DNA from: Deltaproteobacteria bacterium
GTDB taxonomy: Bacteria; Desulfobacterota; Deferrimicrobia; J040
DNA length: 64,000 bases
Direction of reading: 5' to 3'
Assembly: GCA_011773515.1 (NCBI GenBank)
Contig: WVXK01000062.1
Coordinates: forward strand, 68,751-132,750
Part shown: positions 4,704 to 23,081 of the stretch, piece after piece
How the letters are laid out: each line of letters opens with the position of its first letter
Numbering within the stretch: the first letter of the stretch is position 1
Made by a program: the position numbers and the translations under genes
Notes under the pieces: model-generated
Seen by the model: only the letters and a program-made list of their open reading frames with translations
What the model was told of the DNA's origin: nothing
Databases searched by the model: none

Positions 4704-4735
4704 AAAAAAAAACCCTCCCGGCAGGGCCGGGAGGG
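4704..4735 (-). terminator. rho-independent terminator after degP
   Basis: Minus strand CCCTCCCGGC-CCT-GCCGGGAGGG (perfect 10-bp GC stem) followed by a U9 run, 12 nt after the degP TAG stop. Confidence 0.8.
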
Positions 4736-4746
4736 GCTCGTGCCGG

Positions 4747-6192
4747 CTATTGCTTTTTGACAACCACGTACATTCTCCTTTCCCCTCTCTCGACGAGAAA
4801 AAGAACGCTGTCATCAGCTGAACCCTTTTTCAGGGCTTCCCTGAACTCATTCAAACTCCCGATGCGGTTTCTGTTCACCTGCCTTATGATGTCTCTCTCA
4901 CGAATACCGGCATCATCGGTGGGAGATCCCGACGCCACGCCGGTGACAATCACCCCTTTCATGTCCTCAATCTCCATGTGCTTCGCTATTTCCTCGGTGA
5001 TGTCCTGAACGGTCAGTCCCAGGTCCCCAATAATGTCCGTCTTTGCCATGGTGACCTCTTCGGGCATCTCTCCGAGTTTTACCTCCACAGTCTGCTCTTT
5101 ACCGTCCCTTATTATCCCGACCTTGACCTTCGTGCCAGGTGGGGTATCTGCAACGATGGCAGGGAGTTGCTGCGCATCCTCGATCTTCTTGGCGTTGAAT
5201 TCCTTCAGCACATCTCCCTCTTTCAATCCGGCGCTCTCGGCTGGTGAGTCTTTCATCACCTCCGTGATGATCACCCCGTCCTTGGACTCGAGGTTGAGAG
5301 ATTTCGCCATGTCATCGGTTATGCTCTGCATGTAGATTCCGAGCCACCCCCGAACGACCTTTCCCCGCTCCTTCAGCTGCGCGAAAACGGTCTTGGCCAT
5401 GTTGACGGGTATGGCGAAACCGATCCCCTGCCCACCCTGAACGATGGCTGTGTTGATCCCCACCACTTCTCCCTTCAGGTTGAAGAGGGGACCTCCGCTG
5501 TTTCCGGGGTTGATGGAGGCGTCGGTCTGGATGAAGTCATCGTAGGGTCCCGATCCGATTACCCTTCCTTTCGCGCTCACGATTCCCGTCGTTACCGTGT
5601 GATCGAGGCCGAAGGGGTTCCCTATCGCAACGACCCACTCACCCACTTTCAGAGAATCCGAGTCACCCATCTCCACCGTTGGCAGGGTATCTCCGTTCCT
5701 TATCCGTATAAGCGCTATATCCGTCTTCGGATCGGTCCCTATGATTTCCGCCTCGAACTCCTTCCCGTCGTGCAGCTTCACCGTTATCTCGTCAGCCCGC
5801 TGTACAACGTGACTGTTCGTAAGTATGAACCCGTCTCCCGACACGATAAAGCCCGACCCGAGAGATCGCCTCTTCTGCTCCCTCGGCATCCTGCCGAAAA
5901 AATCCTCGAAAAACTCCTCAAAGGGATCCCGGGAGAAAGGGCTTCTGAATTGCGGCTTTCTGAACTTCACGATGGTCGTGGTGCTGATGTTCACGATGGA
6001 ATCTTTCACCCCCTCTACGAGCTCCGGGATGTTCGTGGGAAGATTGAAGTTGCTTTCTTTCTGTTCGCCGGGCTTCTTCTCGATATAGGCAGCATCCGTT
6101 TTTTCCAGCAATTTTCCATCTTTGCCGTGAATAATCAGCCCAACCAAAATCACCAGTGCCAGAAGGAGCACACCGATTCTTACCTTCCTCAT
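4747..6192 (-). CDS. degP: periplasmic serine endoprotease DegP/HtrA family (trypsin domain + 2 PDZ)
   Basis: 481 aa; signal peptide [19 protein letters not shown]; catalytic motifs [15 protein letters not shown]; two PDZ-like regions; ATG with AAAGGAGGTGG RBS. Confidence 0.9.
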
Positions 6193-6230
6193 CGCAATCC
6201 ACCTCCTTTTATCGGGTAGACGCCCCTCAT

Positions 6231-6713
6231 CTATGGATTATTCGATACGCCCTGCGCAACCTTCACGTAAACCATCCTCAGCTGGGAAAGGTATTCTTTG
6301 ATCAATGAATCTTCTTCCTCGGACAGGTTTCCCCTCGTTTTACGCTCCAGGACCCCGAGAAGGTCGATATATTGCCTGGCAATCTCCAGATTCGGCTCCC
6401 CGGGTGTCATCCCCTCACCTTCGAGCATGCCCAGTGAGGCCAGTGCCTGCATAAAAAAAGACTTCACGATGTCGGTGAAATCGGGTTCGTGGTATCGGGG
6501 GGGGGTCTCCCGGGCGTAATCTCCGCTCCCACCCGTTTTTTCGGCGGGCCCTTCGCTCTTTTTCGGCTCTTGACTCGCGTCTTTTGCCTGCTTGGCCCCC
6601 TCAGCTGCCCTGGACCCCACGGGAGGGACATCGCTTTTTTCTTCCGGTGCGTCCTCTCTTCCGATTCTCCTCTTGTCGATAACCCTGAACCCCTTCTCCT
6701 TCTCATCACCCAT
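6231..6713 (-). CDS. DUF1844-family hypothetical protein, translationally coupled to upstream Clp ATPase
   Basis: 160 aa; Lys/Glu-rich N-terminus then PDFTDIVKSFFMQALASLGMLEG (DUF1844-like core). Its ATG (6711-6713) directly abuts the TAG stop of the ClpA-like gene (TAGATG). Confidence 0.7.
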   Translation of the reverse strand: MGDEKEKGFRVIDKRRIGREDAPEEKSDVPPVGSRAAEGAKQAKDASQEPKKSEGPAEKTGGSGDYARETPPRYHEPDFTDIVKSFFMQALASLGMLEGEGMTPGEPNLEIARQYIDLLGVLERKTRGNLSEEEDSLIKEYLSQLRMVYVKVAQGVSNNP

Positions 6714-8981
6714 CTATACACCAACCTCCTTTTGGTTCACCACGAGATCCCCCTCAACGAGATCGAGGTAAAACATGTCCGACTCATTCCACATGAGCGT
6801 TATCGGGATCTTCACTTTCTCATCTATCGTCCTCTTGAGAAACCGTGCGCCGTATTTGATGCTGAACCCGATTTCAGAGAGAAAACCCAGAGATTCATCC
6901 GAGTACTGGAGGTCCTTTCCGTATTCGGCCATCGTCTTCTTGATCGTTTTCAGGTACATTTCCGCTATTTTCCTCACCTCCTCCATCGGGAGGAACCTGA
7001 AGACGATCACATCGTCAATTCGATTTATAAACTCGGGCGAAAAGCGTTCCTCAACGAGATTTATCACGCTCTTTTTCACCGATTCGTAGTTGGCATCTCC
7101 CACGTCAAAGCCCAGCGGCTTTGTCAGCCTCGAATACTCGCCGGCACCCAGGTTGCTCGTCATGATTATGATCGAATCGCTGAAGTATACCTTTTTGCCC
7201 CTGCCGTCGGTGAGCCACCCTTCATCGAAAACCTGGAGGAAAAGGTTGAGAACGTACTGGTCAGCCTTTTCGATCTCGTCCAGGAGGACCACGGTGTAGG
7301 GGTTGTCTTTTATCTGATTCGTCAAAATCCCGCCTCTCTCGGAGCCGACGATTCCCCGGGGCATGCCGATAAGTTTATCTACCGAGACGGTGCCGTCCCG
7401 GTACTCCGACATATCCACCCTCACCATCTTCTGATCATCACCGAAAAGGCATTGTGACAGCGCCTTTGCCATCTCCGTCTTGCCCACACCCGTCGGCCCC
7501 AGGAAAAGCAGAACGCCGTCCGGCTTGTAATAATTTTCCTTCAGGGGCCCCTTGTTCAGGCGCAGCGCCCTGCCCACGGCCTGGATTGCCTCGATCTGTC
7601 CCACCACTCTCGCCGTAAGGTCCTCCTCGATATGGGCGAACCTGTCCACAACATCCCGCTTGATTATGTCTACCGGTGTCTTGATCTCCTTCGATATCAC
7701 GCCGATGATATCCTCGGATGTGACGACTTTGTCCTTGTTCTCGATTTCAACCCTAACCGCTGCCGTATCGATCCAGTTGATAACCTTATCGGGGAGCCTC
7801 AGCGACCTTGCATATCTCTTGGACATGGAAAGAGCCATCTCTATTGCCTCATCGTCTATCACCACGCCATAATTAGACTCGAGACGGGGTTTGAGGCCGT
7901 AGAGTATCTCCCGCGTTTCCTCTATGGTGGGCTCGTCGATTTTTACGATTCTGAACCTCCTCGACAGAGCCTCGTCTTCCTGGATAATTTCCTTGTATTC
8001 CGTCGTGGTCGTTGCCCCTATCATCTGCACTTCACCCCGCGCCAGGGAGGACTTGAATATGTTCGCCGCATCGGAAGGAACACCCATGGCGGACCCGGCC
8101 CCGATAATTGTGTGGGCCTCGTCGACAAAGAGAATTATGTTCTTTTTCTCTCTGAGCTCATTTATGATCTTCTCGATCCTGTCCTCGAACATACCCCTGA
8201 ATACCGTACCGGCGACAACCGTGTTCATCTGAAGGTTGACCACCTGGTGGCCTCTCAGCCGCGGGGGCACCCTGTGGGGCTCGAACTCGAGGCGCAGCGC
8301 AACGCCCTCCACAACGGCGGTCTTACCCACACCGGGATCCCCCGTAACCATCACCGAATTGCACCTGTCCTTGTGGCAGAGAATTTCGAGAATCATATCG
8401 ATCTCATCTTCCCTTCCGATGACGGGGGGAATTTTTCCCTCCCTTGCCAGCAGGTTCAGGTTCACACCAAAGGTGCGAAGGTTAGTGGGAAGCTCGTATC
8501 TCTTCTTGAGGTCTTCGTATTTTTCCTCCCGCGTCTTCAGGTGCATGCTGAACTTCGAAAGGGCTGCCTGCGGATCGACCCCGTAACTCTTGAAAATTCT
8601 TGCCGGTATCGAATGTGTCTCGTGGAAGATTGCAAGAAAAATATCGGGAGGTTCGATGAGATTTCTCTTGTTCCTCTGTGTGGTTTCCCACGCGATGCGA
8701 AACACCTGTTTCGTCGCAGGGGGGATCTTCATGCCCACACCCAGGTATTGCCGCGAGATGCTCAAGTACTCCTTCAGGCTGTATATTACCGACTCAGGCT
8801 CGAGGCCGACGCTCTTTACCAGGTCCTGAAAGAGCTGCTTTTCAACCCCCGAAAAGGATATGAAGAGGTGTTCGAGCCCGAGGTAGTAGTGATGCCTCTT
8901 CTGGGACTCCTCGATGGCACTTGAAAGCATCTTCTGTGCTTTCTCGGTAAGTCTCTCTCTGTAGAACGCGATCTCCATCAT
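6714..8981 (-). CDS. ClpA/ClpC-family AAA+ unfoldase (Clp_N repeats + two AAA modules + ClpP-docking LGF loop)
   Basis: 755 aa; N-terminal double Clp_N repeat; Walker A GDPGVGKTAVVEG and [13 protein letters not shown]; KPLGFDVG tripeptide loop in D2 consistent with ClpP binding; ATG with GAGGG RBS. Confidence 0.9.
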   Translation of the reverse strand: MMEIAFYRERLTEKAQKMLSSAIEESQKRHHYYLGLEHLFISFSGVEKQLFQDLVKSVGLEPESVIYSLKEYLSISRQYLGVGMKIPPATKQVFRIAWETTQRNKRNLIEPPDIFLAIFHETHSIPARIFKSYGVDPQAALSKFSMHLKTREEKYEDLKKRYELPTNLRTFGVNLNLLAREGKIPPVIGREDEIDMILEILCHKDRCNSVMVTGDPGVGKTAVVEGVALRLEFEPHRVPPRLRGHQVVNLQMNTVVAGTVFRGMFEDRIEKIINELREKKNIILFVDEAHTIIGAGSAMGVPSDAANIFKSSLARGEVQMIGATTTTEYKEIIQEDEALSRRFRIVKIDEPTIEETREILYGLKPRLESNYGVVIDDEAIEMALSMSKRYARSLRLPDKVINWIDTAAVRVEIENKDKVVTSEDIIGVISKEIKTPVDIIKRDVVDRFAHIEEDLTARVVGQIEAIQAVGRALRLNKGPLKENYYKPDGVLLFLGPTGVGKTEMAKALSQCLFGDDQKMVRVDMSEYRDGTVSVDKLIGMPRGIVGSERGGILTNQIKDNPYTVVLLDEIEKADQYVLNLFLQVFDEGWLTDGRGKKVYFSDSIIIMTSNLGAGEYSRLTKPLGFDVGDANYESVKKSVINLVEERFSPEFINRIDDVIVFRFLPMEEVRKIAEMYLKTIKKTMAEYGKDLQYSDESLGFLSEIGFSIKYGARFLKRTIDEKVKIPITLMWNESDMFYLDLVEGDLVVNQKEVGV

Positions 8982-8993
8982 GGCTCTTTACCC

Positions 8994-9851
8994 TCAAGCT
9001 GACGTTCCCGCCATTTTTGACAGCCTCTGTATTCTTTCCTCAAGTGGCGGGTGAGTTGAGAAAAGAGCCCCGAACGCCCTTCGTCCGGAAAAATTGTTGA
9101 CGATAAACAGATGGGATGTGGCCGGGTTCGCCGCGATCGGGCGCGAGGGCCGGTATCCTCCAAGTTTTCTCAATGCGCTTGCAAGGTTCTCGGGTTTCCC
9201 GGATAGCTTCGCTCCTGAGGCATCGGCGAGATATTCCCTGCCCCGTGAGATTCCCAGCTGTATAACCATGGCGGCAATCGGCGCAAAGATCGCCACCGCC
9301 AGCAGCCCGAGAATTCCTCCTTCCCCGTCGTCGTCTCTGCCGCCGATGCCGAATATTGCAGCGAATCGTGCCATGGAGGCGAGCATCATGACTGCGCCGG
9401 CAAGGGTGGCAGCAACTGTCTGTATCAGCGTATCCCGGTTTCTGATATGGGCAAGCTCATGGGCCAAAACGCCCTCTATTTCGTCCTCCGTGAGCAAACC
9501 GAGCAATCCCGTGGTTACTGCCACGGCAGAGTTTTCCGGGTTTCGCCCGGTGGCAAAAGCGTTCGGCGTCGGATTCGGCACCACACACACTTTGGGCATG
9601 GGGAGGCCACCGGCCCGCGTCAATTCCCTTACGATGCGGTACAACTGGGGATACTCACCTTCATCGGCCTCCTTGGCCCTGTACATGCCGAGTACGATCC
9701 TGTCTGAAAACCAGTAGCTTCCGAAGTTAAAGAGAATGGCAAAGACAAAAGCGATGAGCATCCCCTGTCTTCCGCCAAACAAGCTCCCAATAACCAGCAG
9801 AAGGCCCGTCAGGAGGCTGAGAAGTATTGCCGTTCTAAACGTGCTCGTCAT
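8994..9851 (-). CDS. htpX: membrane zinc metalloprotease HtpX (M48)
   Basis: 285 aa, TM helices, HELAHIRNRD (HExxH) motif, typical HtpX length and topology. Confidence 0.9.
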   Translation of the reverse strand: MTSTFRTAILLSLLTGLLLVIGSLFGGRQGMLIAFVFAILFNFGSYWFSDRIVLGMYRAKEADEGEYPQLYRIVRELTRAGGLPMPKVCVVPNPTPNAFATGRNPENSAVAVTTGLLGLLTEDEIEGVLAHELAHIRNRDTLIQTVAATLAGAVMMLASMARFAAIFGIGGRDDDGEGGILGLLAVAIFAPIAAMVIQLGISRGREYLADASGAKLSGKPENLASALRKLGGYRPSRPIAANPATSHLFIVNNFSGRRAFGALFSTHPPLEERIQRLSKMAGTSA

Positions 9852-9896
9852 CTCTGTTCACCCCATTCTTGCATTTTTCGAAACCTGTTCCCCGAT

Positions 9897-10979
9897 CTAC
9901 TCTGAGTACCTACTCCTTATATCATTATCTTCCCATTTTGCCATTTCTTTAACAAGTCTTCTGTACGCCTCGTCCTGATTTCTGGGAAGGACAACCCTGA
10001 CCACGACATACTGGTCACCCCTTCCCCCGCCGCTTTTGTATGCGCCCTTGCCCTTCAACCGTATCTTCTTTCCGCTCTCGGTACCCGGGGGAATCTTCAC
10101 CTTCACCGTGCCGTCTATGGTCGGCACCTCGATCGTGGCCCCGAGAACAGCCTCAGAGTAATTGAGAGGAACTTCCATGAATATATCGAATCCCTCTCTC
10201 TTGAAGAACCGGTGGGCTCCTACCTCGACTTCCAGGTAGAGATCCCCTGAGCCTCCACCAGCTCTGCCCATCTCTCCTTTTCCTGCAACTCTCACCTTCG
10301 TTCCCCTGCTTGCGCCCGGTGGGATTTTGACCTTAATCCTTTCCGAGACATCTTTCATCCCCGCGCCAATGCATGACCCGCAGGGGGAACCGGTAAATCC
10401 TGCCCCCCTGCAACTTTCACAGGGCTGGGCTATACCCAATATCCCTCCCCCGCGCTTCATCCGCCCGCTGCCCCCGCAGGTTGCACAGGTGGATCGGGCA
10501 CCCGCCTGAATTCCTACTCCCCCGCAGTCAGGGCATTCCACGCGCCTTCTGTAGCTCAGCTCCCTTTCGGTCCCCTTTGCCGCCTCCAGAAAAGAGAGTT
10601 CGGCCCTGATCACGAGATCTCTTCCCCGCGTTGGTCCCCACTCACCATGTCCGGAACGCCCGAAAATATCCCCGAATATGTCTCCCAGGTCGAAGGACAT
10701 TCCCCTTCCGCCGGGATAGTCAAACCCTGAAAAACCCTCGAATCCGCCGGAGGAAAAGGCTCCCCTCTTCACGGCATCGTACTGCGCTTTCTTGCTCTCG
10801 TCGGATAGAACATCATGAGCTTCGTTTATTTCTTTGAACTTTTTCTCCGCTTCCTCATTCCCCGGATTTACGTCGGGATGATATTTCTTCGCAAGTCTTC
10901 TGAACGCTCTCTTTATCTCCTCTTTCGTGGCGCTTTCCGGGATGCCAAGTATTTTGTAATAGTCCCTTGAAAAATCCAT
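9897..10979 (-). CDS. dnaJ: chaperone DnaJ
   Basis: 360 aa; J-domain (YYKILGIPESATKEEIKRAFRRLAKKYHPDVN), G/F region, four CxxCxGxG zinc-finger repeats, C-terminal domains. Confidence 0.95.
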   Translation of the reverse strand: MDFSRDYYKILGIPESATKEEIKRAFRRLAKKYHPDVNPGNEEAEKKFKEINEAHDVLSDESKKAQYDAVKRGAFSSGGFEGFSGFDYPGGRGMSFDLGDIFGDIFGRSGHGEWGPTRGRDLVIRAELSFLEAAKGTERELSYRRRVECPDCGGVGIQAGARSTCATCGGSGRMKRGGGILGIAQPCESCRGAGFTGSPCGSCIGAGMKDVSERIKVKIPPGASRGTKVRVAGKGEMGRAGGGSGDLYLEVEVGAHRFFKREGFDIFMEVPLNYSEAVLGATIEVPTIDGTVKVKIPPGTESGKKIRLKGKGAYKSGGGRGDQYVVVRVVLPRNQDEAYRRLVKEMAKWEDNDIRSRYSE

Positions 10980-11020
10980 CCGCCACTTCCTGTCGGTCCA
11001 GCTTTAAGTAAGATGAACCG

Positions 11021-11048
11021 AAAAAAAATAGGGTGCAGATTAAACCCT
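11021..11048 (-). terminator. probable rho-independent terminator between hsp20 and dnaJ
   Basis: Minus strand GAGGGT-ttaatctgc-ACCCT followed by U8; located 12 nt after the hsp20 stop. Short stem, so readthrough into dnaJ is likely. Confidence 0.55.
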
Positions 11049-11059
11049 CAACGCCTGGA

Positions 11060-11512
11060 TTACCCAGCGTTGATGTCTATCTTCTTGGGTCTCACCTCTT
11101 CTTTCTTCGGAAGAATGATCTCGAGGACGCCATCTTTGAACGTAGCCGATACCTTCTCCTGATCAATCTTGGAGTTCAGGGAAAAGGATCTCCTAAAGGA
11201 TCCATACTCGCGCTCCATGAGATGGAAATGCTCCTTGTCCACCTCTTTCTGATACTTCCTCTCGCCCCGTATCGTCAGGATCCCGTCCTTGACCTCGATG
11301 CTTACATCATCCCGGCCTATCCCGGGAAGCTCGGCTGTTACCATCACCTGTGAATCCGTTTCACATATATCCACAGAGGGTGACCAGACGCCTTTTCCCG
11401 GGACATCCTCCTTTTTCCGGGAGCCTCGAAATTTTTCTTCGAAGAGCCTGTTCATCCTGTCCTGAATTAGCGCAAGCTCCCTTAGAGGATCATACCACCT
11501 TACGATAGCCAT
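11060..11512 (-). CDS. small heat-shock protein (Hsp20/alpha-crystallin family)
   Basis: 150 aa; alpha-crystallin domain (AELPGIGRDDVSIEVKDGILTIRGER); AGGAGG RBS 7 nt upstream; only 27 bp downstream of dnaK. Confidence 0.9.
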   Translation of the reverse strand: MAIVRWYDPLRELALIQDRMNRLFEEKFRGSRKKEDVPGKGVWSPSVDICETDSQVMVTAELPGIGRDDVSIEVKDGILTIRGERKYQKEVDKEHFHLMEREYGSFRRSFSLNSKIDQEKVSATFKDGVLEIILPKKEEVRPKKIDINAG

Positions 11513-11539
11513 GACCTGAACCTCCTCTTGTCTTTATCG

Positions 11540-13462
11540 TCATGAACTCGACTTATCCTGATCTTCAAACTCCGCGTCGATAACATCGGAATCGCCCGCC
11601 GCTCCCTCACCGGACGGCTGAGACGCTGTCGCCTCTCCGGCTCCTTCTTCCGGCTCGGCTGTTTTTGCCTGCTTGTACATTATCTCCGCAATCTTGTGGG
11701 CCTCCTTCATCAGCTCGTCTGCAGCAGAGCGAAGGGCGTCTTCGTCATCCGACTTCAGCACTTCTTTTGCCCTGCTCAACCCATCTTCTGCTTTTGAGAC
11801 TTCATCCGGTGGCAGTTCAGAACGGTTCTCGTTCAAAGTCTTCTCTATGTTATAGATGAGGTTGTCGAGATTATTCCTGGCCTCGACGATCCTCCTTTGC
11901 TTTTTGTCCTCTTCAGAGTGAACTTCCGCTTCATCGACCATCCTCTTGATCTCCTCATCGGTTAGTCCCGTAGAGGACGTGACGGTTATCCTCTGTTCCT
12001 TGTTGGTTGCGAGGTCTTTCGCCGAAACATTGAGAATCCCGTTGGCGTCAATGTCGAAGGTCACCTCCACCTTGGGGATTCCCCTGGGTGCCGGGGGAAT
12101 ACCCTCGAGGTGAAATCGACCGAGGGTCCTGTTGGCCCTTGCCATTTCACGTTCACCCTGGAGAACGTGAATCTCCACCGATGTCTGGTTGTCGGCCGCA
12201 GTGGTAAATATCTCGCTCTTTTTGACCGGTATGGTCGTATTTCGCTCGGTAATTTTGGTCATTACGCCCCCGAGTGTCTCTATGCCGAGCGAGAGAGGAG
12301 TAACATCGAGGAGGAGAACGTCCTTGACCTCTCCGCCGAGGACGCCCGCCTGAACCGCCGCCCCGAGGGCAACGACTTCATCGGGGTTCACACCCTTGTG
12401 GGGCTCTTTTCCGAAGAAATTTTTGACCGCCTCCTGAACCTTGGGGATCCTGGTGGAGCCCCCGACGAGAATGATTTCATCGATGTCATCTCCCTTCAAG
12501 TCAGCATCGGAGAGGGCAAGCCTGCAGGGTTCAAGGGTACGCTCAACGATCTGTTCAATCATGGTTTCGAGCTTCGCCCTGGTCAATTTCATGCTGAGGT
12601 GTTTCGGTCCGGAAGCGTCTGCGGTGATAAACGGCAGGTTTATCTCCGTCTCGAGAACAGACGAGAGCTCGATCTTTGCTTTCTCGGCCGCTTCCTTCAG
12701 CCTCTGGAGAGCCATCTTGTCCTTGGACAGGTCTATTCCCTGGTCCTTCCTGAACTCCTCTATGATCCAGTCGATTACCCGCTGATCGATGTTGTCACCG
12801 CCAAGGTGCGTATCCCCGTTGGTCGCTTTCACCTCGACCACATTCTCTCCCACCTCGAGAATGGATATATCGAAGGTACCACCACCAAAATCATACACCG
12901 CTATGACCTCGTTCTTCTTCTTGTCCAGCCCGTATGCCAGTGCTGCAGCGGTGGGCTCGTTGATGATCCTCATCACCTCGAGGCCCGCGATGGTCCCGGC
13001 ATCTTTGGTTGCCTGCCGCTGCGAGTCGTTGAAGTATGCAGGAACGGTGATGACAGCTTTCTTGACCTCCTCGCCGAGATATGCCTCTGCGGCTTTTTTC
13101 AGCTTCCCCAGGACCATGGCCGATATCTGCTGTGGGGTGTAATCCTTGCCTGCAACCAGGATACGAGCGTCGTTGTTCGGCCCGCTCTGTACCTGGTACG
13201 GCACCATCTCTTTTTCTTCCTTTACCTCATCATGGCGCCGTCCCATGAATCGCTTTATCGAAAAGACGGTATTGTCCGGGTTCGTGATTGCCTGTCTTTT
13301 CGCTACCTGCCCGACAAGAACCTGCCCATCCTTTGCGAAAGCAACGACCGACGGGGTCAGCCTGGATCCCTCTTCATTGATGATGACTTTGGGCTCCCCA
13401 CCCTCCATCACCGCGACAACCGACATCGTGGTACCAAGGTCAATACCGATAATCTTTGACAT
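11540..13462 (-). CDS. dnaK: chaperone DnaK (Hsp70)
   Basis: 640 aa; [30 protein letters not shown], full NBD + SBD + lid; GGAGG RBS overlapped by the stop codon of the upstream REC gene. Confidence 0.97.
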
Positions 13463-13478: not shown

Positions 13479-13862
13479 TTATTTTTTGGGCGTTCTGGTA
13501 ATCAACCGTGCGATAAACCGTGAAAGTGTCTCCGGATGGAGGGGCCTGGTGACGAAACCGACGGCACCAGACTCCAGAGCCCGCGTCCACCGCTCCAGAC
13601 TCCCACTTTCAGACATAAAAACCGAGGGGATCGAAGAGGTAATGTCCAGAAGGTTCCCCAGCGGATCATATCCACCGTAGGGTATGTCATCTAGGTCTAT
13701 GAGCGCCATGGAAAACCCGCCTTTTGCCCATTTCTGCCCAAAATCGAGAAGGTCGAGGCAGACCTCGGCTTCGATACCGAAAACACCGAGTTCCTCGACG
13801 AGCTCCCTTATCTCATCTCCCATCTCTTTCCTGCCTACTATGAGCAGAACCCTCGCAAACAT
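13479..13862 (-). CDS. stand-alone atypical receiver (REC/CheY-like) domain protein
   Basis: 127 aa; CheY-like spacing with phosphoacceptor-position Asp (MALIDLDD), Ser at beta4 (VFMSESG), but the acidic Mg-binding pair after beta1 is replaced (IVGRKE) and the beta5 Lys is Arg (VTRPL). GGAGG RBS; TAA stop at 13479-13481 lies inside the dnaK RBS. Confidence 0.75.
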
Positions 13863-13898
13863 TTCGAGATCCTCCAGGTATCCGCGTAGTGATAAGTT

Positions 13899-13913
13899 TC
13901 AAAAGTCATGCCA
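13899..13913 (-). promoter_or_regulatory. weak sigma-54-like -24/-12 element upstream of REC-dnaK (TGGCATG-N4-TTGA)
   Basis: Minus strand aattgTGGCATGacttTTGAaac. -24 GG present; -12 is GA rather than the consensus GC. About 25-nt leader to the REC ATG. Confidence 0.25.
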
Positions 13914-14011
13914 CAATTTGCTTTAGAAAAAAATTAACACAAGATACCGAAAAGAAATGGCTTTTACATTTTATGCCGATGATGGCAATCAGGGAAAGAC
14001 ACCGATGAGGC

Positions 14012-14044
14012 CTGCCAAAATGGCCTGGCGTGTCATTTTGGCAG
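14012..14044. promoter_or_regulatory. perfect 10-bp inverted repeat CTGCCAAAAT-N13-ATTTTGGCAG (candidate enhancer/operator)
   Basis: Seen directly; sits between the 3' end of the sigma-54 activator gene and the REC-dnaK start (~165 bp upstream of REC ATG); half-sites contain TGGCA. Confidence 0.5.
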
Positions 14045-14053
14045 ACCCTTTGC
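14038..14053 (+). promoter_or_regulatory. sigma-54-type -24/-12 motif TTGGCAG-accct-TTGC on plus strand (antisense to activator gene)
   Basis: GG-N10-GC spacing satisfied (GG 14040-41, GC 14052-53); overlaps right arm of the inverted repeat; would fire into the 3' end of the minus-strand activator gene. Confidence 0.3.
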
Positions 14054-14058
14054 CGACC

Positions 14059-15468
14059 TTACGGTAATCCGTATTCCTTGATCTTTCTGTAGAGGGTCCT
14101 CACTCCGATACCCAGCATCTTGGCCGCTTTTGTCTTGTTGTTTCCCGTTGCTTTCAAGGCTTCGATTATGGCATTTTTTTCAACCTCATCCAGCGGAATG
14201 ACCACGGCACCCCCATCGTCTTCAGCGGGGGATTCCACCCTTCCCGCGACGGGTATCGGATCCCTTCCTTCTCTGTACCGCTTTCTTTTGAGTTCGGTCG
14301 GGAGAACCTCTTTGGAGATAACCTCCCCCTCCGTGAGCAGAACCATGGATTCGATCACATTTCTCAACTCCCTCACGTTGCCCGGCCATGGGTACTGCTG
14401 AAAAACCCGCATCGCATCAGCCGAAATCCTCTTCTCCTCGAGACCGTTTTCCCTGCACAGGTTTTTTGTGAAATGGATCGCCAGGGTGGGTATATCCTCG
14501 GTTCTCTCTCTCAAAGGCGGAATATGTATCGTAAAGACGCTCAATCTGAAAAAGAGGTCTTCCCGAAACTTTTTCGACGAAACCAAGCCTCTCAGGTCAG
14601 AGTTCGTAGCGGCCACTATCCTCACGTCAACGTTGATGACCTTGCCTCCTCCGACTCTCAGGATCTCTTTCTGCTCGATTGCCCTGAGAAGCTTCGCCTG
14701 CGTCGAGAGAGTGAGGTCACCAATCTCATCGAGGAAGAGTGTCCCATCGGACGCAATTTCGAATTTTCCCTTTACCGCACCGACTGCGCCGGTGAATGCG
14801 CCTTTTTCATGGCCGAACAGTTCCGACTCAAGAATGCTTTCGGTGAGGGCGGCGCAGTTTATCGGCATAAAAAGTTTATCCTTCCGTGGGCTCATCTCGT
14901 GAATCGCACGCGCAACCAGCTCCTTCCCCGTGCCCGACTCACCGAGAATCAGGACGTTTGCCTTCGTGGGGGCGACCATGCGCACCATCTGCATTACCTT
15001 CTCCATTTCCCGCGACCGGTAGAGAATTTCACCGACTTCGGTTTTAACCAGTCTTCTCAGTGTCCCCAGCTCTTCCATCATCCCCCGAGCTCGAATCGTC
15101 TTGATCAGGACACCTTTCAGCTCTTCCATGTCAATGGGTTTTTGAAGGTAATCCGTCGCCCCTTCTTTGATTGCGTGGACTGCATTTCCGATCGTCCCGA
15201 AAGCCGTGAGGACGATTACCGGAGCGTGAGGATGGGCCTCTTTCACTTTCCTGATTACTTCCATGCCGTCTAAACCCGGCATTTTCATGTCTGTTATGAT
15301 TATGTCGCCCCCGGAATCATCGATGCGGGAGATAAACTCCAGGGGGGAATTGAAAAGCCTCACCTCGAAACCCAGGTTCGTAAGTGCCCTCCCGATGCTC
15401 GTGAGATTTTCTTTGTCATCATCGATAACCGTTACGCTTTTTCCGGAAAATTCCGGGAGCGATTTCAT
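14059..15468 (-). CDS. sigma-54-dependent response regulator (NtrC family: REC + AAA sigma-54 activator + Fis-type HTH)
   Basis: Track ORF extends to 15711 (alt start); true start ATG 15466-15468 (MKSLPEFSGKSVTVIDDDKEN) with GGAGG RBS. Canonical REC (DDD, D in IITDMKMPG, T, K); GESGTGKE Walker A, GAFTGA sigma-54 contact motif; C-terminal HTH AAKMLGIGVRTLYRKIKEYGL. Confidence 0.93.
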   Translation of the reverse strand: MKSLPEFSGKSVTVIDDDKENLTSIGRALTNLGFEVRLFNSPLEFISRIDDSGGDIIITDMKMPGLDGMEVIRKVKEAHPHAPVIVLTAFGTIGNAVHAIKEGATDYLQKPIDMEELKGVLIKTIRARGMMEELGTLRRLVKTEVGEILYRSREMEKVMQMVRMVAPTKANVLILGESGTGKELVARAIHEMSPRKDKLFMPINCAALTESILESELFGHEKGAFTGAVGAVKGKFEIASDGTLFLDEIGDLTLSTQAKLLRAIEQKEILRVGGGKVINVDVRIVAATNSDLRGLVSSKKFREDLFFRLSVFTIHIPPLRERTEDIPTLAIHFTKNLCRENGLEEKRISADAMRVFQQYPWPGNVRELRNVIESMVLLTEGEVISKEVLPTELKRKRYREGRDPIPVAGRVESPAEDDGGAVVIPLDEVEKNAIIEALKATGNNKTKAAKMLGIGVRTLYRKIKEYGLP

Positions 15469-16226
15469 TTCACAACCTCCGGAAGGTACCGCCCCCTCTG
15501 TTTCTTCGCCAACACCTCCCGGAAACTTTCCTCCGGAAGGAAAGAGAGGGTAAACTCCGTCCCCTTTCTCTTCCTGCTCCTTATGCGTACCTTGCCGTGA
15601 TGCTCCCTCATTATCCTCTTCACTATCGGCAAACCCAACCCGCTCCCTTCGGTCTTGGTCGTGTAAAACACCGAGAACACTTTTCCCCTGTCCTTCCTTT
15701 CGATCCCGCAACCGTTGTCCTTGACCTTTACGAAATAGAAATTCTCCTCTTTTCCCGTTGTCACCCTGATCGTCTTGTCCTCCTTGTCAAGCGATTCCGC
15801 AGCGTTTAAAAGCACGTTCAAAAGAGCCTGTTTCACCATTTTTTCATCGACGAGAACAGGAAAAGGAGCCTCGTCGGGCAAGTATCGCACCTTAATGTCC
15901 CTGCCACGAAAGTCGACCTCCACGAACCGGACCACTTCCTCGACAACCCTGTTTAGGTCAGTAACGACAAACTCCGGCTTCTTCGGGCGGGTCAGCCGCA
16001 AAAATTCCGAAACGATGTCGTTGAGCCTGTTCAAAACTCGAAGATTCGAGTCGATGATCTCCTGCATTTCTCCTTTCTTTTCAAACCACTCAGGCAGAAG
16101 AAACGTATATTCCGAGAGAAGCTGATTATTGATGCTCAGCGCATTGAGCGGATTTCGAATCTCATGGGCAATGCCGGACAGAGCCGATTCGAGCTCTTCC
16201 TGGGAAACTTTTTTTTTCCGGGCCAT
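15465..16226 (-). CDS. cytoplasmic histidine kinase lacking any sensor/TM domain (HisKA + HATPase_c only)
   Basis: 253 aa; H-box GIAHEIRNPLNAL begins ~17 aa from the N-terminus; G-boxes DNGCGIE, GSGLGLPIVKRIM. 4-nt overlap (ATGA) with the activator gene. Confidence 0.9.
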   Translation of the reverse strand: MARKKKVSQEELESALSGIAHEIRNPLNALSINNQLLSEYTFLLPEWFEKKGEMQEIIDSNLRVLNRLNDIVSEFLRLTRPKKPEFVVTDLNRVVEEVVRFVEVDFRGRDIKVRYLPDEAPFPVLVDEKMVKQALLNVLLNAAESLDKEDKTIRVTTGKEENFYFVKVKDNGCGIERKDRGKVFSVFYTTKTEGSGLGLPIVKRIMREHHGKVRIRSRKRKGTEFTLSFLPEESFREVLAKKQRGRYLPEVVK

Positions 16227-17353: not shown

Positions 17354-19417
17354 GTGCGGATGCTCACAGGAAAAATAAGAATCGCCGCAATCACCTTGAC
17401 CTGCCTGGCTGCCGGCATGTTTTGCGGAATCCTCTTTGTCTACTTTTCCGGGCCTTTCCCCGATGTGTCGGTGCTGAAGGAATATCGTCCCTACAACGCC
17501 ACGAAAGTGTACGACAAAGACGGCAGAAACATAGCCGAATTTGCCATTGAGCAGAGAACAACCATTCCCCTCGAAGAGATACCGGAGCTCATCAAAAAAG
17601 CCTTCATCGCAGCCGAGGACTCCAAGTTTTACATGCACGGCGGGATAGACCTTTCAGGCATCATGCGCGCCCTCATCAAGAATATCCAAAAATTCAAATT
17701 CTCCCAGGGAGGTTCGACCATCACGCAGCAACTCGTAAAGCTCCTCTACCTGACGCCCGAGAAAAGCATCCGGAGAAAAATCCTCGAGATACTGCTGGCG
17801 ATAAAGGTTGACAATAACCTATCGAAAGACGAGATCCTCGGCCTTTATCTGAACCAGATCTACCTCGGAGAGGGACAGTACGGCGTGAATGCCGCTGCGA
17901 GGACTTACTTCGGGAAGGATCCCGGTGAGCTCACCCTTGGCGAAATAGCCCTCATCGCGGGGCTCCCAAAATCACCCGGTTACTATTCCCCCCGGACTCA
18001 TCCTGAAAGATCCCTCATGCGACGCAGGTACGTCCTCGAACGGATGGTGGACGAGGATTACATAACACAGGAAGATGCCATACTTGCAGCTCTCGAACCG
18101 GTAACGCTCGTTGCGAAAAAGGACAGGTCGACGGGATCTTACTTCGTCGAGTACGTAAGAAGGTACCTCCATGAGAAATATGGTTACGATGTTCTCTACA
18201 AGGGGGGGCTGCAGGTCTACACCACCATGGACAGGGAACTCCAGGAGGTGGCGGAAACGAGCCTGCGCGAGTGGATCGAGGAACTCGAACCAACCATAGA
18301 AAAAAAGAAACGTGATACCGGGCAGGCAGAGATAGAAAAAATCGAAATAGCAGATGAAAGCGGAGATCAGGAGGCAAAGGAGGTCGAACTCCAGGGCGCG
18401 CTTCTGGCGATCGACATCACAAACGGGGAGGTCCTCTCCATAGTTGGGGGCAGGGACTTCTCCCGCTCCCAGTTCAACCGGGCGATCCAGTCCAGGAGGC
18501 AACCGGGTTCGGCTTTCAAACCGGTCATATACGCAGCAGCAATTGATTCGGGCTACACCCCCGCAGACAGGATTGGGGACAATCCCGTGGAATATGTGAA
18601 AAACGAAAAGGAGAACTGGAAACCGACAAACTATGACGAAAAATTCCTCGGCGACATAACCCTCAGGGAGGCGCTTGCCAGATCCAGAAATCTGGCTACC
18701 GTGAGGCTTCTGGAAAAGATTGGCATACAGAAAGCCATTTCGATGGCAAGGACCCTGGGTATCGATTCAAACATACCCGGTGACCTCTCCATAGCACTCG
18801 GCAGCCTCTCACTCTCCCTGATTGACTTATGCCAGGCATACGCAGCCATAGGAAATCTCGGGAAGCAGCCAGAACCCCTCTATATCAGGGAGGTCAGGGA
18901 CATGGGCGGGGAAATACTCGAGAGCAACAAACCCACCCTCACACAAGTATTATCTCCAGAAACGTCGTATATAATGACATACATGCTTCAATCAGTCATC
19001 AGGGATGGAACGGGAAGAAAGGCGAAGTTTCTGGGAACGAATCTTTCGGGGAAAACGGGGACCACGAACGACTACATCGATGCCTGGTTCATCGGTTTTT
19101 CGCCGAGAGTTCTCGCCGGAGTTTGGGTCGGGTTCGACAACCCCATAACCATGGGAAAGGGGAAAACGGGGGCCGTTGCAGCCCTTCCAATCTGGATACG
19201 ATACATGAAAAAGGCGATACGGAAGTATCCCGCCTCCCAGTTCGATCTCGCACCGGGAATCGTGTTTGCAAAAGTCGACCCCAAAAGCGGGTTGAGGGTT
19301 GGCAAAGATAAGAGGGGAATAATGGTACCATTCAGGCTGGGAACCACGCCACCCTGGCTCCAGCCGGAGGTGAAAATGCGGGAGGAGAAGAAAAAATTTC
19401 TGGACGACATTTTATGA
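17354..19417 (+). CDS. mrcA: penicillin-binding protein 1A (bifunctional transglycosylase/transpeptidase)
   Basis: 687 aa; TM anchor; GT51 motifs EDSKFYMHGGID, GGSTITQQL; transpeptidase SAFKP, SGKTGTT. GTG at 17354 or ATG at 17360. Confidence 0.92.
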   Translation: MRMLTGKIRIAAITLTCLAAGMFCGILFVYFSGPFPDVSVLKEYRPYNATKVYDKDGRNIAEFAIEQRTTIPLEEIPELIKKAFIAAEDSKFYMHGGIDLSGIMRALIKNIQKFKFSQGGSTITQQLVKLLYLTPEKSIRRKILEILLAIKVDNNLSKDEILGLYLNQIYLGEGQYGVNAAARTYFGKDPGELTLGEIALIAGLPKSPGYYSPRTHPERSLMRRRYVLERMVDEDYITQEDAILAALEPVTLVAKKDRSTGSYFVEYVRRYLHEKYGYDVLYKGGLQVYTTMDRELQEVAETSLREWIEELEPTIEKKKRDTGQAEIEKIEIADESGDQEAKEVELQGALLAIDITNGEVLSIVGGRDFSRSQFNRAIQSRRQPGSAFKPVIYAAAIDSGYTPADRIGDNPVEYVKNEKENWKPTNYDEKFLGDITLREALARSRNLATVRLLEKIGIQKAISMARTLGIDSNIPGDLSIALGSLSLSLIDLCQAYAAIGNLGKQPEPLYIREVRDMGGEILESNKPTLTQVLSPETSYIMTYMLQSVIRDGTGRKAKFLGTNLSGKTGTTNDYIDAWFIGFSPRVLAGVWVGFDNPITMGKGKTGAVAALPIWIRYMKKAIRKYPASQFDLAPGIVFAKVDPKSGLRVGKDKRGIMVPFRLGTTPPWLQPEVKMREEKKKFLDDIL

Positions 19418-20409
19418 GGGCCAACAGCGTGCCATTACTTTCAGATCACACTGGCAGGACGGTCAACTACCTGAGAATCTCTGTCACCGACAGGTGCAAC
19501 CTCAGATGCACCTACTGTATGCCACCCGCCGTCGTGTCAGCGAGAAAGGATAAGCGACTCCTTCGCTACGAAGAGATGACCAGGCTCATCGAGATGCTCC
19601 TCCCCCTCGGGATCAGCAAGATACGGATAACGGGCGGGGAGCCACTCGTCCGCAAAGACCTGCCCCTCTTTATCGAAATGATCAAAAAGTCGGCTCCCCA
19701 CGCTGAACTCTGCATGACGACAAACGGTATTCTCGTAACCAGGTACCTGGAAGACCTGAGGAAGGCGGGCATAGACCGATTCAACGTGAGCCTGGACACG
19801 CTGAAGGCAGACAGGTTCAGGAAGATCACCGGTTACGACCTGCTCGATCAGGTGCTCGAGGGAATAAACGGGATAATAGCGAAAGAACTATTTCCGTTAA
19901 AGTTAAACGTCCTTCTCATCCCGGGAGTGAACAGCGATGAGATAGAAAGCTTCATCGAGTTTGCCAGAACCCACCCCGTGGAAGTGCGATTCATAGAAAA
20001 GATGCCGATAGGAAGCCTCAGGGACACAGGTTTTGTTCCCGTGTCGAAGGTTGAGGCGGCTCTCTGGAATAAGTATGGTGAAGTGAGGGGAAGAAGGGCC
20101 AGAGGTGAAACTTCCCTTCAGTACGACCTAAAGGGGTTCGCAGGGAAAATAGGGCTGATTGCTCCCCTCTCCAGAACCTTTTGTTCCGACTGCAACAGGT
20201 TGAGGATTACCGCCGGCGGAGAAATTCTCAACTGTCTCCTCAATAGGACGGCATATGATGTGGGGTCGGCCCTTGAAAACGGCAGCGGAGACTCCGAGAT
20301 CATGGATGTAATAAAGAGGGCTCTGTCAGAAAAACCCGCACGGTACGACCAGGGGTATCTGTTCAGAAGCGGCCAGATGAAAAGGTGCATGACCAGCATC
20401 GGGGGGTGA
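19414..20409 (+). CDS. moaA: GTP 3',8-cyclase MoaA (radical SAM)
   Basis: 331 aa; YLRISVTDRCNLRCTYCMP radical-SAM cluster motif; C-terminal MoaA-specific domain; overlaps PBP1A stop by 4 nt. Confidence 0.92.
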   Translation: MRANSVPLLSDHTGRTVNYLRISVTDRCNLRCTYCMPPAVVSARKDKRLLRYEEMTRLIEMLLPLGISKIRITGGEPLVRKDLPLFIEMIKKSAPHAELCMTTNGILVTRYLEDLRKAGIDRFNVSLDTLKADRFRKITGYDLLDQVLEGINGIIAKELFPLKLNVLLIPGVNSDEIESFIEFARTHPVEVRFIEKMPIGSLRDTGFVPVSKVEAALWNKYGEVRGRRARGETSLQYDLKGFAGKIGLIAPLSRTFCSDCNRLRITAGGEILNCLLNRTAYDVGSALENGSGDSEIMDVIKRALSEKPARYDQGYLFRSGQMKRCMTSIGG

Positions 20410-20463
20410 TTGAAAGGTAAACCCTTGGCTGTATTCGGGGAACTGTCAGGTCAGCAGCGCTTC

Positions 20464-21912
20464 CTATCCCTTCACAACGAGAAGTGGCTTGAGTTTCGCC
20501 ACCTTTTCCGCAATGCCGAGCCTGTGCACGACCTCAACCACCTCCGACACATCCTTGTATGCTTCGGATACTTCCTCCAAGAGGGTTGCCCTCCCGGCCG
20601 CAAAAACCCTTATACCCCTCTTCAGGAGTTCACCCTTGATATCTCTTTTCCGGAACTGTCTCTTGGCGCTGGCCCTGGACATCGTTCTTCCCGCACCGTG
20701 GCAGGTGCTTCCGAAAGAAAGAGTCAGAGCATTCTCGGATCCCACGAGCACATATGAGCTTCGCCCCATATCTCCCGGTATGAGTACCGGCTGCCCCACG
20801 TCCCTGTATACCGGGGGAAGCTCGGGCCTTCCTGCAGGCAGTGAGCGGGTTGATCCTTTCCTGTGGACGAGGAGTTTCTTCTGTTTCCCTCCCACGTCGT
20901 GATTTTCTATCTTCACTATGTTGTGACCGCAGTCATACACGAGGTCCATCCCGAGTCCGGCAGGTCCCGTCTGGAGTACCTGCTGAAACGTCTCCCTCGT
21001 GAAGTGGCTGAGGACCTGCCTGTTGGCCCATGCATAATTTGCTGCACATGCGAGTCCCTTTAAATACCTTTTCCCCTCAGGTGATTGTATGTGCGCGCAG
21101 GCAAGCTGCCTGTCCGGAAGGTCGAGACCCTTTTCCCTCATGTATCTGACCATCTCGCCCAGGAAATCATCACACACCTGGTAACCGAAGCCTCGGGAGC
21201 CTGAGTGAACCTGGACGACAACCTGCCCCCCCCTCAAGCCGAAAGCATCGGCGGCTTCGGGGTTATATATCTCCTCAACCAGATCAATCTCGAGAAAATG
21301 GTTGCCCGAGCCGAGAGTTCCCAGCTGGTCTCTCCCTCTTTTCAGGGCTTTTTCGGAAACAACGTCGGGGTCGGCGCCGTGAAAAGTCCCCCCATCTTCC
21401 GTCCTTTCCAGGTCTTCCTCGGAACCGAACCCCTGCTTGACCACCCAGCGCGCACCCTGGCTGAGAACGTCTCTCTGCTCCGCCCTGCCGAGCCTTATCT
21501 TCCCCGTCGAGCCGACACCGGATGGTATGTTCGTAAAAAGCGCCGCTCCGAGCCTGTCCAGCTGTTGTTCAATGTCCTCGAGTTCGAGGTCGCTTCTCAA
21601 CAGCCTGCATCCGCAGTTGATGTCATATCCCACGCCCCCGGGGCTTATGACCCCCCTGTCCATGTCCATTGCCGCAACCCCACCGATGGGGAAACCGTAT
21701 CCGCGATGGATGTCGGGCATGGCAATGCTGTATTTTTCGATACCCGGAAGGTGCGCCACGTTCACAACCTGCCGGAGGCTATCATCCTTCACGATGTCCT
21801 GGAGCATTTCCCTGGAGGAAAACACAACACCGGGAACCTTCATTTTGCCGGCCTTTGGAATTTCCCACATGTAATCGTTTACTTTTACCAGCTCAATGCC
21901 TTCGAACTTCAT
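20464..21912 (-). CDS. rtcB: RNA-splicing ligase RtcB
   Basis: 482 aa; full-length RtcB with conserved metal/GTP-binding His/Cys residues. Confidence 0.95.
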   Translation of the reverse strand: MKFEGIELVKVNDYMWEIPKAGKMKVPGVVFSSREMLQDIVKDDSLRQVVNVAHLPGIEKYSIAMPDIHRGYGFPIGGVAAMDMDRGVISPGGVGYDINCGCRLLRSDLELEDIEQQLDRLGAALFTNIPSGVGSTGKIRLGRAEQRDVLSQGARWVVKQGFGSEEDLERTEDGGTFHGADPDVVSEKALKRGRDQLGTLGSGNHFLEIDLVEEIYNPEAADAFGLRGGQVVVQVHSGSRGFGYQVCDDFLGEMVRYMREKGLDLPDRQLACAHIQSPEGKRYLKGLACAANYAWANRQVLSHFTRETFQQVLQTGPAGLGMDLVYDCGHNIVKIENHDVGGKQKKLLVHRKGSTRSLPAGRPELPPVYRDVGQPVLIPGDMGRSSYVLVGSENALTLSFGSTCHGAGRTMSRASAKRQFRKRDIKGELLKRGIRVFAAGRATLLEEVSEAYKDVSEVVEVVHRLGIAEKVAKLKPLLVVKG

Positions 21913-21920
21913 GACTCCCC

Positions 21921-22340
21921 CTACACGTCGAGGATGAAGGTTGCCATGTACCCCTCAGCGCTTTTTTCGACCCTCAGGTCATGATAGGTTACCGCTTTAA
22001 TCTCAGTTTTGAGGACATGCCTGCCCTCGTGAAAAGGCTCTCCCCAGGCTTCCGGGCGGTATATACATTCGCCTCTCTCCAGCTTACCGTTTATGGATCT
22101 GATCAGGAAGCCCTCGCCGTAAAACTGAAAATGCACCCACCGCAGAAAGTTAAAGAAGAGATCCTCGATACCCGCGCCTTCTACGAAGGCCTCTTTTTTA
22201 CCGGCTTTCCTGACCCGCCTTCTGTCAACGATGATGCTCACCAGTGACTCCCCTGCCCGGGCAAACAGCTCCTCCAGCGACGCGGCCTCGATGAGAATCT
22301 TGAGGTCCGCCGTGTGGGGAAGGACCTTGTAGCCAGCCAT
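21921..22340 (-). CDS. archease (RtcB activator)
   Basis: 139 aa; MAGYKVLPHTADLKILIEAASLEELFARAGE... matches archease family; 8-nt gap to rtcB. Confidence 0.85.
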   Translation of the reverse strand: MAGYKVLPHTADLKILIEAASLEELFARAGESLVSIIVDRRRVRKAGKKEAFVEGAGIEDLFFNFLRWVHFQFYGEGFLIRSINGKLERGECIYRPEAWGEPFHEGRHVLKTEIKAVTYHDLRVEKSAEGYMATFILDV

Positions 22341-23080: not shown

Positions 23081-23081
23081 T

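Follow-up and report, generated by a model that had tools for sequence, protein, structure and literature searches.

The 196-bp spacer that separates the gene for an NtrC-type enhancer-binding protein from a dnaK operon headed by a small receiver-like (REC-like) gene very probably carries a sigma-54 (RpoN)-dependent promoter of the chaperone operon together with its control sites, the promoter being driven by the adjacent histidine kinase and NtrC-type activator. The locus lies in a 64-kb stretch of a deltaproteobacterial contig (WVXK01000062.1, positions 68,751 to 132,750), referred to below as the window; coordinates within it are collected in Table 1. The sequence elements of the spacer, their conservation and spacing, and the intactness of the activator can be read directly from the DNA. 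Enhancer-dependent control of REC-dnaK had been proposed in a first-pass annotation of the window, and the proposal is supported by the invariance of the promoter core, by the presence of dyads at -130 to -155 and by the intact NtrC-type activator encoded upstream.

A collection of 5.8 billion proteins yielded only 8 relatives of the REC-like protein, and in 8/8 cases the next gene is of the dnaK type. Wherever the contig extends far enough upstream, genes for the kinase and the activator precede the REC-like gene, and their order is the same in all. Spacers from eight metagenome lineages were compared, the identities of their REC-like proteins to that of the window being 96, 90, 80, 72, 68, 60 and 58%. 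A metagenome scan with the REC alignment added two contigs of a lineage already sampled and an unrelated hit with 26% identity (L092). Identity between spacers is merely 58-62% per alignment column (alignments A3 and A4). The columns that are invariant in the eight lineages comprise TGGCA and TTG of the promoter, the cores of the dyads, the Shine-Dalgarno sequence, the ATG and four T columns (T105, T106, T120 and T121) situated between the dyads and the promoter.

The predicted promoter, GTGGCATGACTTTTGAA, has its core, TGGCATGACTTTTGA, at 13913..13899 on the minus strand; this is the motif that had been described from the sequence as TGGCATG-N4-TTGA. It was scored with a matrix derived from the 42 intergenic, gene-oriented sigma-54 sites identified in Escherichia coli by chromatin immunoprecipitation and sequencing (ChIP-seq; Bonocora et al., PMC4591121), which themselves range from 8.6 to 21.6 bits with a median of 15.9. 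At 15.65 bits, the site stands at about the training median and ranks second among the ~128,000 positions of the window. The plain pattern is not significant alone: TGGCAY-N5-TTG has one occurrence in the window versus 0.65 expected, and TGGCAC-N5-TTGC with 2 mismatches or fewer has 37 versus 39.9 expected. Since these counts are at the level of chance, the evidential weight lies in position and conservation, not in the pattern. TGGCA (with GG at -25/-24) is invariant in the eight lineages, and so is the GG-N10-GN spacing, no insertion or deletion being found between TGGCA and TTG. The orthologous promoters score between 14.4 and 15.65 bits and lie 35-37 nt upstream of the ATG, or 51 nt in the case of one lineage. 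In each related locus of 5-12 kb the orthologous promoter is the single best sigma-54-like site; the frequency of sites of at least 14.4 bits in 80 unrelated loci (1.2 Mb) is 3.4e-5 per position. The predicted transcription start follows the convention of placing it 19 nt downstream of the motif centre, that is, 12 nt past the -12 position (PMC4591121).

The same bases could be interpreted differently, with TGGCA...TTG being bound by another factor or with TTGAAA forming the -35 element of a sigma-70 or sigma-32 promoter. The TTGAAA of the window does match a -35 or a sigma-32 -35 hexamer, and dnaK operons are textbook targets of sigma-32 or of HrcA and its operator CIRCE (controlling inverted repeat of chaperone expression), one or the other of which usually governs them in Proteobacteria. 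However, inspection revealed no -10 element at the right spacing and none that is conserved; a scan found no sigma-70-like site on the coding strand of the spacer, and no CIRCE. Furthermore, the hexamer itself varies among lineages (TTGAAA, TTGAAC, TTGTAT, TTGATT), whereas TGGCA, six bases upstream, is invariant. We consider this interpretation very unlikely. Only one site in the window scores higher than the predicted sigma-54 promoter: CTGGCATGGTTTTTTCA (25242-25258, minus strand; 15.95 bits) lies in the sense orientation inside a 1022-aa open reading frame (ORF), resembles the variant promoter of E. coli glnH (TTTCA) and has no activator gene close by.

The distal portion of the spacer contains an inverted repeat that the first-pass annotation had proposed as the upstream activating sequence. 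The arms, CTGCCAAAAT (14012-14021) and ATTTTGGCAG (14035-14044), are present and are actually one base longer than originally described, making a perfect repeat with 11-bp arms (14012-14022 / 14034-14044) and an 11-nt spacer. The 64 kb contains 3 distinct inverted repeats that are perfect over 10 bp or more and have a loop of 3-20 nt, versus ~1.0 on average in block shuffles; ~0.003 would be expected by chance in the 196-bp spacer. Comparison of the lineages suggests that the functional unit is a pair of tandem 13-bp dyads, TGYCA-N3-TGRCA, and not the 10-bp repeat as such; the long perfect repeat exists because the two near-palindromic dyad sites are mutually complementary. Thus, the idea that activator-type sites are present and conserved stands, while the unit originally proposed does not. 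Another of the three repeats of the window, a perfect 10-bp TTTCAGGGGT-N16-ACCCCTGAAA at 4400-4435, falls in the coding region of clpB.

Candidate site 1 (TGCCAAAATGACA in the window) is the sole exact match to TGYCA-N3-TGRCA in the window, versus 0.17 expected. It is kept in the window, in L001, in L005 (as TGCCATTTTGACC) and in L007/L091 (as TGTCATTATGACC in L007) and is degenerate in L093 and L094. In candidate site 2 (GGCCATTTTGGCA in the window), the seven columns G-CA...TG-CA are invariant (alignment A4). The dyad at this site reads TGCCAAAATGACA in L005 and is perfect in L007 (TGCCAAATTGGCA), L093 (TGCCATAATGACA) and L094 (TGTCATAATGGCA). The two centres are 18-19 bp apart, and their positions in the different lineages (-132/-150, -134/-153, -135/-153, -142 and -141) stay within ~10 bp. 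Both the number and the position of the dyads are those of a bacterial enhancer (at least 2 dyad sites, ~80-150 bp upstream). The distance from enhancer to promoter is usually 100-150 bp, and IHF-assisted looping has been described (PMC7057263).

The inverted repeat might conceivably operate at the RNA level, as a terminator or stabilizing hairpin closing the kinase-activator transcript at its 3' end. It is found 15 nt past the activator stop codon, and folding of the hairpin region yields a strong structure in the window (-27.1 kcal/mol; z -3.2), with -19.5 kcal/mol (z -2.8) for L001. However, the stem is A/U-rich and no U-run comes after it on the coding strand. Moreover, L005 has lost the long inter-site hairpin (z -0.35), and in L007 two separate small hairpins take its place, each site folding on itself. 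Finally, the internal dyad of each 13-mer is conserved, a feature that an inter-site hairpin would not need. Loss of the hairpin with retention of the dyads fits candidate protein-binding sites in the DNA and not a conserved RNA structure. A role in RNA is therefore an unlikely explanation for the repeat, although the hairpin may have a secondary effect in the lineage of the window.

A different objection is that the dyads could be operators of another regulator, for instance a repressor, with the adjacent activator controlling some other promoter; their assignment to the neighbouring activator was indeed made by proximity alone. Against this stand the order activator-dyads-promoter, kept in every lineage, the position and number of the sites, which are typical of enhancers (PMC7057263), and the invariance of the activator's recognition helix alongside the conserved site. 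In addition, the surroundings of the activator gene contain no second sigma-54 site scoring 11 bits or more in any related locus. Ownership of the dyads by a different regulator thus appears quite improbable, and the dyads are best viewed as the putative enhancer of the REC-dnaK promoter. Neither the promoter of the kinase-activator operon nor clpB has a further copy of the dyad or of the REC-dnaK promoter in its vicinity, and hence nothing points to autoregulation or to a wider local regulon.

The spacer also carries a sigma-54-like motif on the plus strand, TGGCAG-N5-TTGC, which had been suggested to direct antisense RNA synthesis against the 3' end of the activator gene and so exert feedback on the activator. 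The motif is present (core TGGCAGACCCTTTGC at 14039-14053; 10.35 bits, rank 7 in the window). Its geometry is correct, its score is within the range of the ChIP-bound E. coli sites (minimum, 8.6), and E. coli is known to contain antisense sites bound by sigma-54 (PMC4591121). It occurs, however, only in the window and in its closest relative (L001 group; 11.4 bits), a retention that would be expected from kinship given the 96% identity of the REC-like proteins, and it is absent from the four more distant lineages (L005, L007/L091, L093 and L094), in which antisense scores do not exceed 6. The match can be accounted for because TGGCA is fixed by the half-site of dyad 1, leaving only TTGC to arise by chance. 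The -24 element of the motif lies inside dyad 1, and the centre of dyad 2 is ~46 bp before the putative antisense start; there is no enhancer at looping distance upstream of the motif and no other dyad in the spacer. RNA polymerase positioned here would cover both activator sites, with no enhancer left. A working antisense promoter is thus very unlikely, and the suggested feedback on the activator is not supported; the motif is most likely a chance by-product of the activator site. Inert binding of sigma-54 at this position is possible, by analogy with the antisense sites of E. coli. The half-site TGGCA is identical to the -24 core of sigma-54 promoters, and, as a result, both strands of the enhancer bear pseudo -24 elements.

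Between the dyads and the promoter lies a possible binding site for integration host factor (IHF), TTTCGGTATCTTG, which includes the invariant T120 and T121. A search of the 65 bp upstream of each promoter placed the best match to WATCARNNNNTTR on the same strand and between -59 and -61 in seven lineages. The match is perfect in L007 (TATCAACAGGTTA) and L008 (AATCAAAAGGTTA); it has 1 mismatch in L001, L091 and L093, and 2 mismatches in the window and in L094. Conservation of an IHF-like site between enhancer and promoter is suggestive of assisted DNA bending.

The proteins encoded on either side of the spacer are in keeping with this arrangement. Although the ORF of the activator extends to 15711, translation almost certainly begins at the ATG at 15468, a codon that overlaps the stop codon of the kinase gene. 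The activator matches Sigma54_activat (3.8e-68), Response_reg and HTH_8 in Pfam; its GAFTGA motif, its Walker A motif (GESGTGKE) and the receiver Asp (in IIITDMKMPG) are intact. It is the sole activator of the GAFTGA type in the 64-kb window. In six loci from five lineages the recognition helix of the activator reads VRTLYRKIKEY without variation, while identity over the C-terminal 60 aa drops to 56%. A scan of reference genomes with the activator retrieved 80 loci with 37-47% identity, none of which has REC, dnaK, hsp20 or dnaJ nearby; these activator-paralogue loci were used solely as background for the scoring matrix. The kinase-activator-dnaK module seems, from these comparisons, to be confined to one narrow clade. 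The kinase, 253 aa in length, lacks a sensor or membrane domain, its N-terminus leading directly into the H-box. As for the REC-like protein, its match to Response_reg (24.5 bits) is under the Pfam cut-off, the acidic pair expected after strand 1 has given way to other residues (LLIVGRK), and Arg takes the place of the conserved Lys (TRP). An identical protein is already recorded for a metagenome-assembled "Deltaproteobacteria bacterium". The REC-like protein may act as a feedback partner of the kinase or of the activator.

The following sequence of events can be envisaged, in which the protein bound at each site, the point of transcription initiation, the inducing signal and the participation of IHF are all predictions. 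Sigma-54 RNA polymerase would occupy GTGGCATGACTTTTGAA (13914..13898, minus strand) as a closed complex. The sensor-less kinase would phosphorylate the NtrC-type regulator encoded immediately upstream of the spacer, and dimers of the regulator, bound to the two tandem dyads (14043-14013, near -150/-132), would assemble into an active AAA+ ring. A bend at ~-60 (near 13946), probably introduced by IHF, would loop the ring onto the polymerase. ATP hydrolysis would then open the promoter, with transcription starting near A13887 and producing a 25-nt leader. No intrinsic terminator was found between the activator gene and the promoter (minus strand, 13863-14058); therefore, read-through from the kinase-activator operon may add some basal expression.

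Several points weigh against this interpretation. The 64-kb window does not code for an RpoN-box peptide, and IHF genes did not turn up in it either, although no search was aimed at them; the presence of sigma-54 and IHF in the genome is assumed because the activator, with its GAFTGA motif, is intact. The eight lineages form one narrow clade, and the conservation among them is not fully independent. The 18-19 bp spacing places the two dyads on different faces of the helix, an arrangement less usual than one of whole turns, and L093 and L094 have only one strong dyad. The IHF-like site of the window carries 2 mismatches, and that of L005 is poor. Lastly, the promoter departs from the consensus GC at -13/-12 (TTGCW), the hallmark C at -12 being absent.

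The departure at -12 had been picked up in the first-pass annotation as GA instead of GC. The observation is correct. Read lineage by lineage, position -12 holds A, A, T, A, A, A, T and T, never C, and the G at -13 is invariant. Among the 42 E. coli sites, 4 have no C at -12, and three of these are confirmed: pspA (TTGTA), pspG (TTGTA) and hydN (GTGAA) (PMC4591121). A base other than C is a recognized functional variant and does not exclude a site from the sigma-54 promoters; A or T is acceptable in the present case because it is conserved here and because such bases are found in the confirmed pspA, pspG and hydN promoters. The consensus C at -12 restrains basal transcription (Schaefer et al., PMC4551910). 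Less conserved C residues at this position correlate with low-level, activator-independent transcription, to which elevated temperature has also been linked (PMC4551910). By analogy, the conserved A/T may loosen the lock on basal transcription of the REC-dnaK operon.

Table 1. Features of the locus in window coordinates.
Feature	Position	Strand	Remarks
Histidine kinase gene	15465..16226	-	HisKA and HATPase_c only (Pfam)
NtrC-type enhancer-binding protein gene	14059..15468	-	469 aa; REC, sigma-54 AAA+ and Fis-type helix-turn-helix (HTH) domains
Spacer between activator gene and REC-like gene	13863-14058		196 bp
Inverted repeat, extended	14009..14047	.	13/14 matches, 14009-14022 / 14034-14047
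Candidate activator site 1, dyad TGCCAAAATGACA	14031..14043	-	Centre ~-150 from predicted start
Candidate activator site 2, dyad GGCCATTTTGGCA	14013..14025	-	Centre ~-132; 18 bp from site 1
Plus-strand sigma-54-like motif TTGGCAGACCCTTTGCC	14038..14054	+	Judged a fortuitous by-product of activator site 1
Possible IHF site TTTCGGTATCTTG	13940..13952	-	Centre -59; 2 mismatches to WATCARNNNNTTR
Sigma-54 promoter GTGGCATGACTTTTGAA (predicted)	13898..13914	-	-24 GG at 13912-13911; TTG at 13902-13900; -12 is A13899
Predicted transcription start	13887	-	25-nt leader; placed 12 nt past the -12 position
Shine-Dalgarno sequence GGAGG	13871..13875	-	8 nt before REC ATG at 13862; kept in alignments A1, A3 and A4
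REC-like gene, first of operon	13479..13862	-	Degenerate receiver-like protein, 127 aa
Remainder of predicted operon	4704..13462	-	Pfam; intergenic gaps of 0-80 nt
dnaK	13462-11540	-	Pfam
hsp20	11512-11060	-	Pfam
dnaJ	10979-9897	-	Pfam
M48 peptidase gene	9851-8994	-	Pfam
ClpA/ClpC-like double AAA+ protein gene	8981-6714	-	Pfam
DUF1844 gene	6713-6231	-	Pfam
DegP/HtrA gene	6192-4747	-	Pfam
Strong intrinsic terminator after DegP gene	4735-4713	-	10 pairs, 9 of them G-C, then nine T

The control region is of a known kind, with a moderately unusual target. Its closest counterpart in design is the NtrB/NtrC-glnAp2 system of enteric bacteria, with which it shares a kinase, an activator of REC-AAA+-Fis-HTH architecture, tandem dyads more than 100 bp upstream of a -24/-12 promoter and activation by looping (here predicted). 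It differs in having chaperone and protease genes, not nitrogen assimilation, as its target, in the sequence of the sites (TGYCA-N3-TGRCA), in the A/T at -12 and in the lack of a sensor in the kinase. The best paralogues of the activator in reference genomes are no more than 46-47% identical, and none of them adjoins dnaK. The PspF-pspA/pspG system of E. coli offers a second parallel, having a stress-related sigma-54 promoter with a base other than C at -12 (TTGTA), an upstream enhancer and assistance by IHF (here a possibility). In that system the activator is subject to feedback from the product of the first pspA operon gene, PspA, which acts on PspF (PMC7057263). Unlike the present activator, PspF has no receiver domain and no kinase; the first gene of the operon described here encodes a degenerate receiver-like protein.

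Other links between sigma-54 and proteotoxic stress have been reported. In Myxococcus xanthus, a delta-proteobacterium, the kinase HsfB and the NtrC-family regulator HsfA are described as a heat-shock system that activates lonD (PMC3892784, in a statement referring to Ueki and Inouye, J Biol Chem 277:6170). That system acts on a Lon protease gene and not on a dnaK operon, and the likeness drawn here is one of system type. A sigma-54 site at E. coli rpoH is marked as confirmed (PMC4591121), and predicted sigma-54 promoters are enriched at groEL, ibpA, grpE, dnaJ and dnaK in Bacteroidota and Planctomycetota (PMC12316311). The rpoH, Bacteroidota and Planctomycetota cases involve different phyla and have no dedicated two-component activator encoded alongside, nor a defined enhancer. 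Sigma-32 and HrcA-CIRCE act on the same class of target genes; the present region differs from theirs in having no CIRCE and no conserved -10, and the operon in having no grpE. At the present locus, ~9 kb of chaperone and protease genes appear to be under a two-component sigma-54 module of their own, complete with a clear enhancer. The locus is a well-defined addition to a scattered set of connections between sigma-54 and proteotoxic stress, the mechanism itself being standard. It also provides TGYCA-N3-TGRCA as a predicted binding motif for an uncharacterized family of activators, and a set of naturally occurring promoters, all with A or T at -12, that could serve for testing how the base at this position tunes basal against activated transcription.

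One could go further and imagine that sigma-54, in place of sigma-32 or HrcA, is the heat-shock or proteotoxic-stress regulator of the whole quality-control operon in this uncultivated deltaproteobacterial clade. Such a model would fit with the A/T at -12, the sensor-less kinase and the degenerate receiver-like protein encoded beside DnaK and DnaJ, but we regard it as doubtful. Within it, the A/T at -12 could be a selected feature, giving a weaker fork-junction lock and an opening that is leaky or eased by heat. Likewise, the sensor-less kinase and the receiver-like protein could, together with DnaK and DnaJ, close a feedback loop in which chaperone titration acts on the kinase or the activator, analogous to the action of PspA on PspF or of DnaK on sigma-32.

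The gene order of the operon, from the REC-like gene to the DegP gene, is identical in L094. The predicted transcript, from the promoter to the terminator at 4735-4713, is ~9.2 kb. The M48 peptidase is HtpX-like, and the ClpA/ClpC-like AAA+ protein has 755 aa; grpE is not part of this operon. The gene content is reminiscent of the heat-resistance or protein-quality-control islands of enterobacteria and Pseudomonas. The next gene past the operon terminator is clpB. A mechanical ORF call begins it at 4814, which would make it overlap degP and run across the terminator; its real start codon is the ATG at 4648, with AGAGGAGG ahead of it. From the T-run of the terminator to clpB there are ~56 nt, and no clear promoter was seen in that gap.

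An Rfam scan of the window detected tRNA only, and the spacer contains no known RNA element. The CIRCE operator, TTAGCACTC-N9-GAGTGCTAA, was searched for across the whole window and gave 0 matches with 3 mismatches or fewer. Upstream of the kinase gene, the order is conserved for genes encoding a DUF192 protein and a 179-aa protein without a Pfam match. Gene order is also kept across the clade in the flanking region (17354-23167; 1-3072 in L094), which includes genes for a class A penicillin-binding protein and a MoaA-like radical S-adenosylmethionine protein and a metallophosphatase-archease-rtcB cluster.

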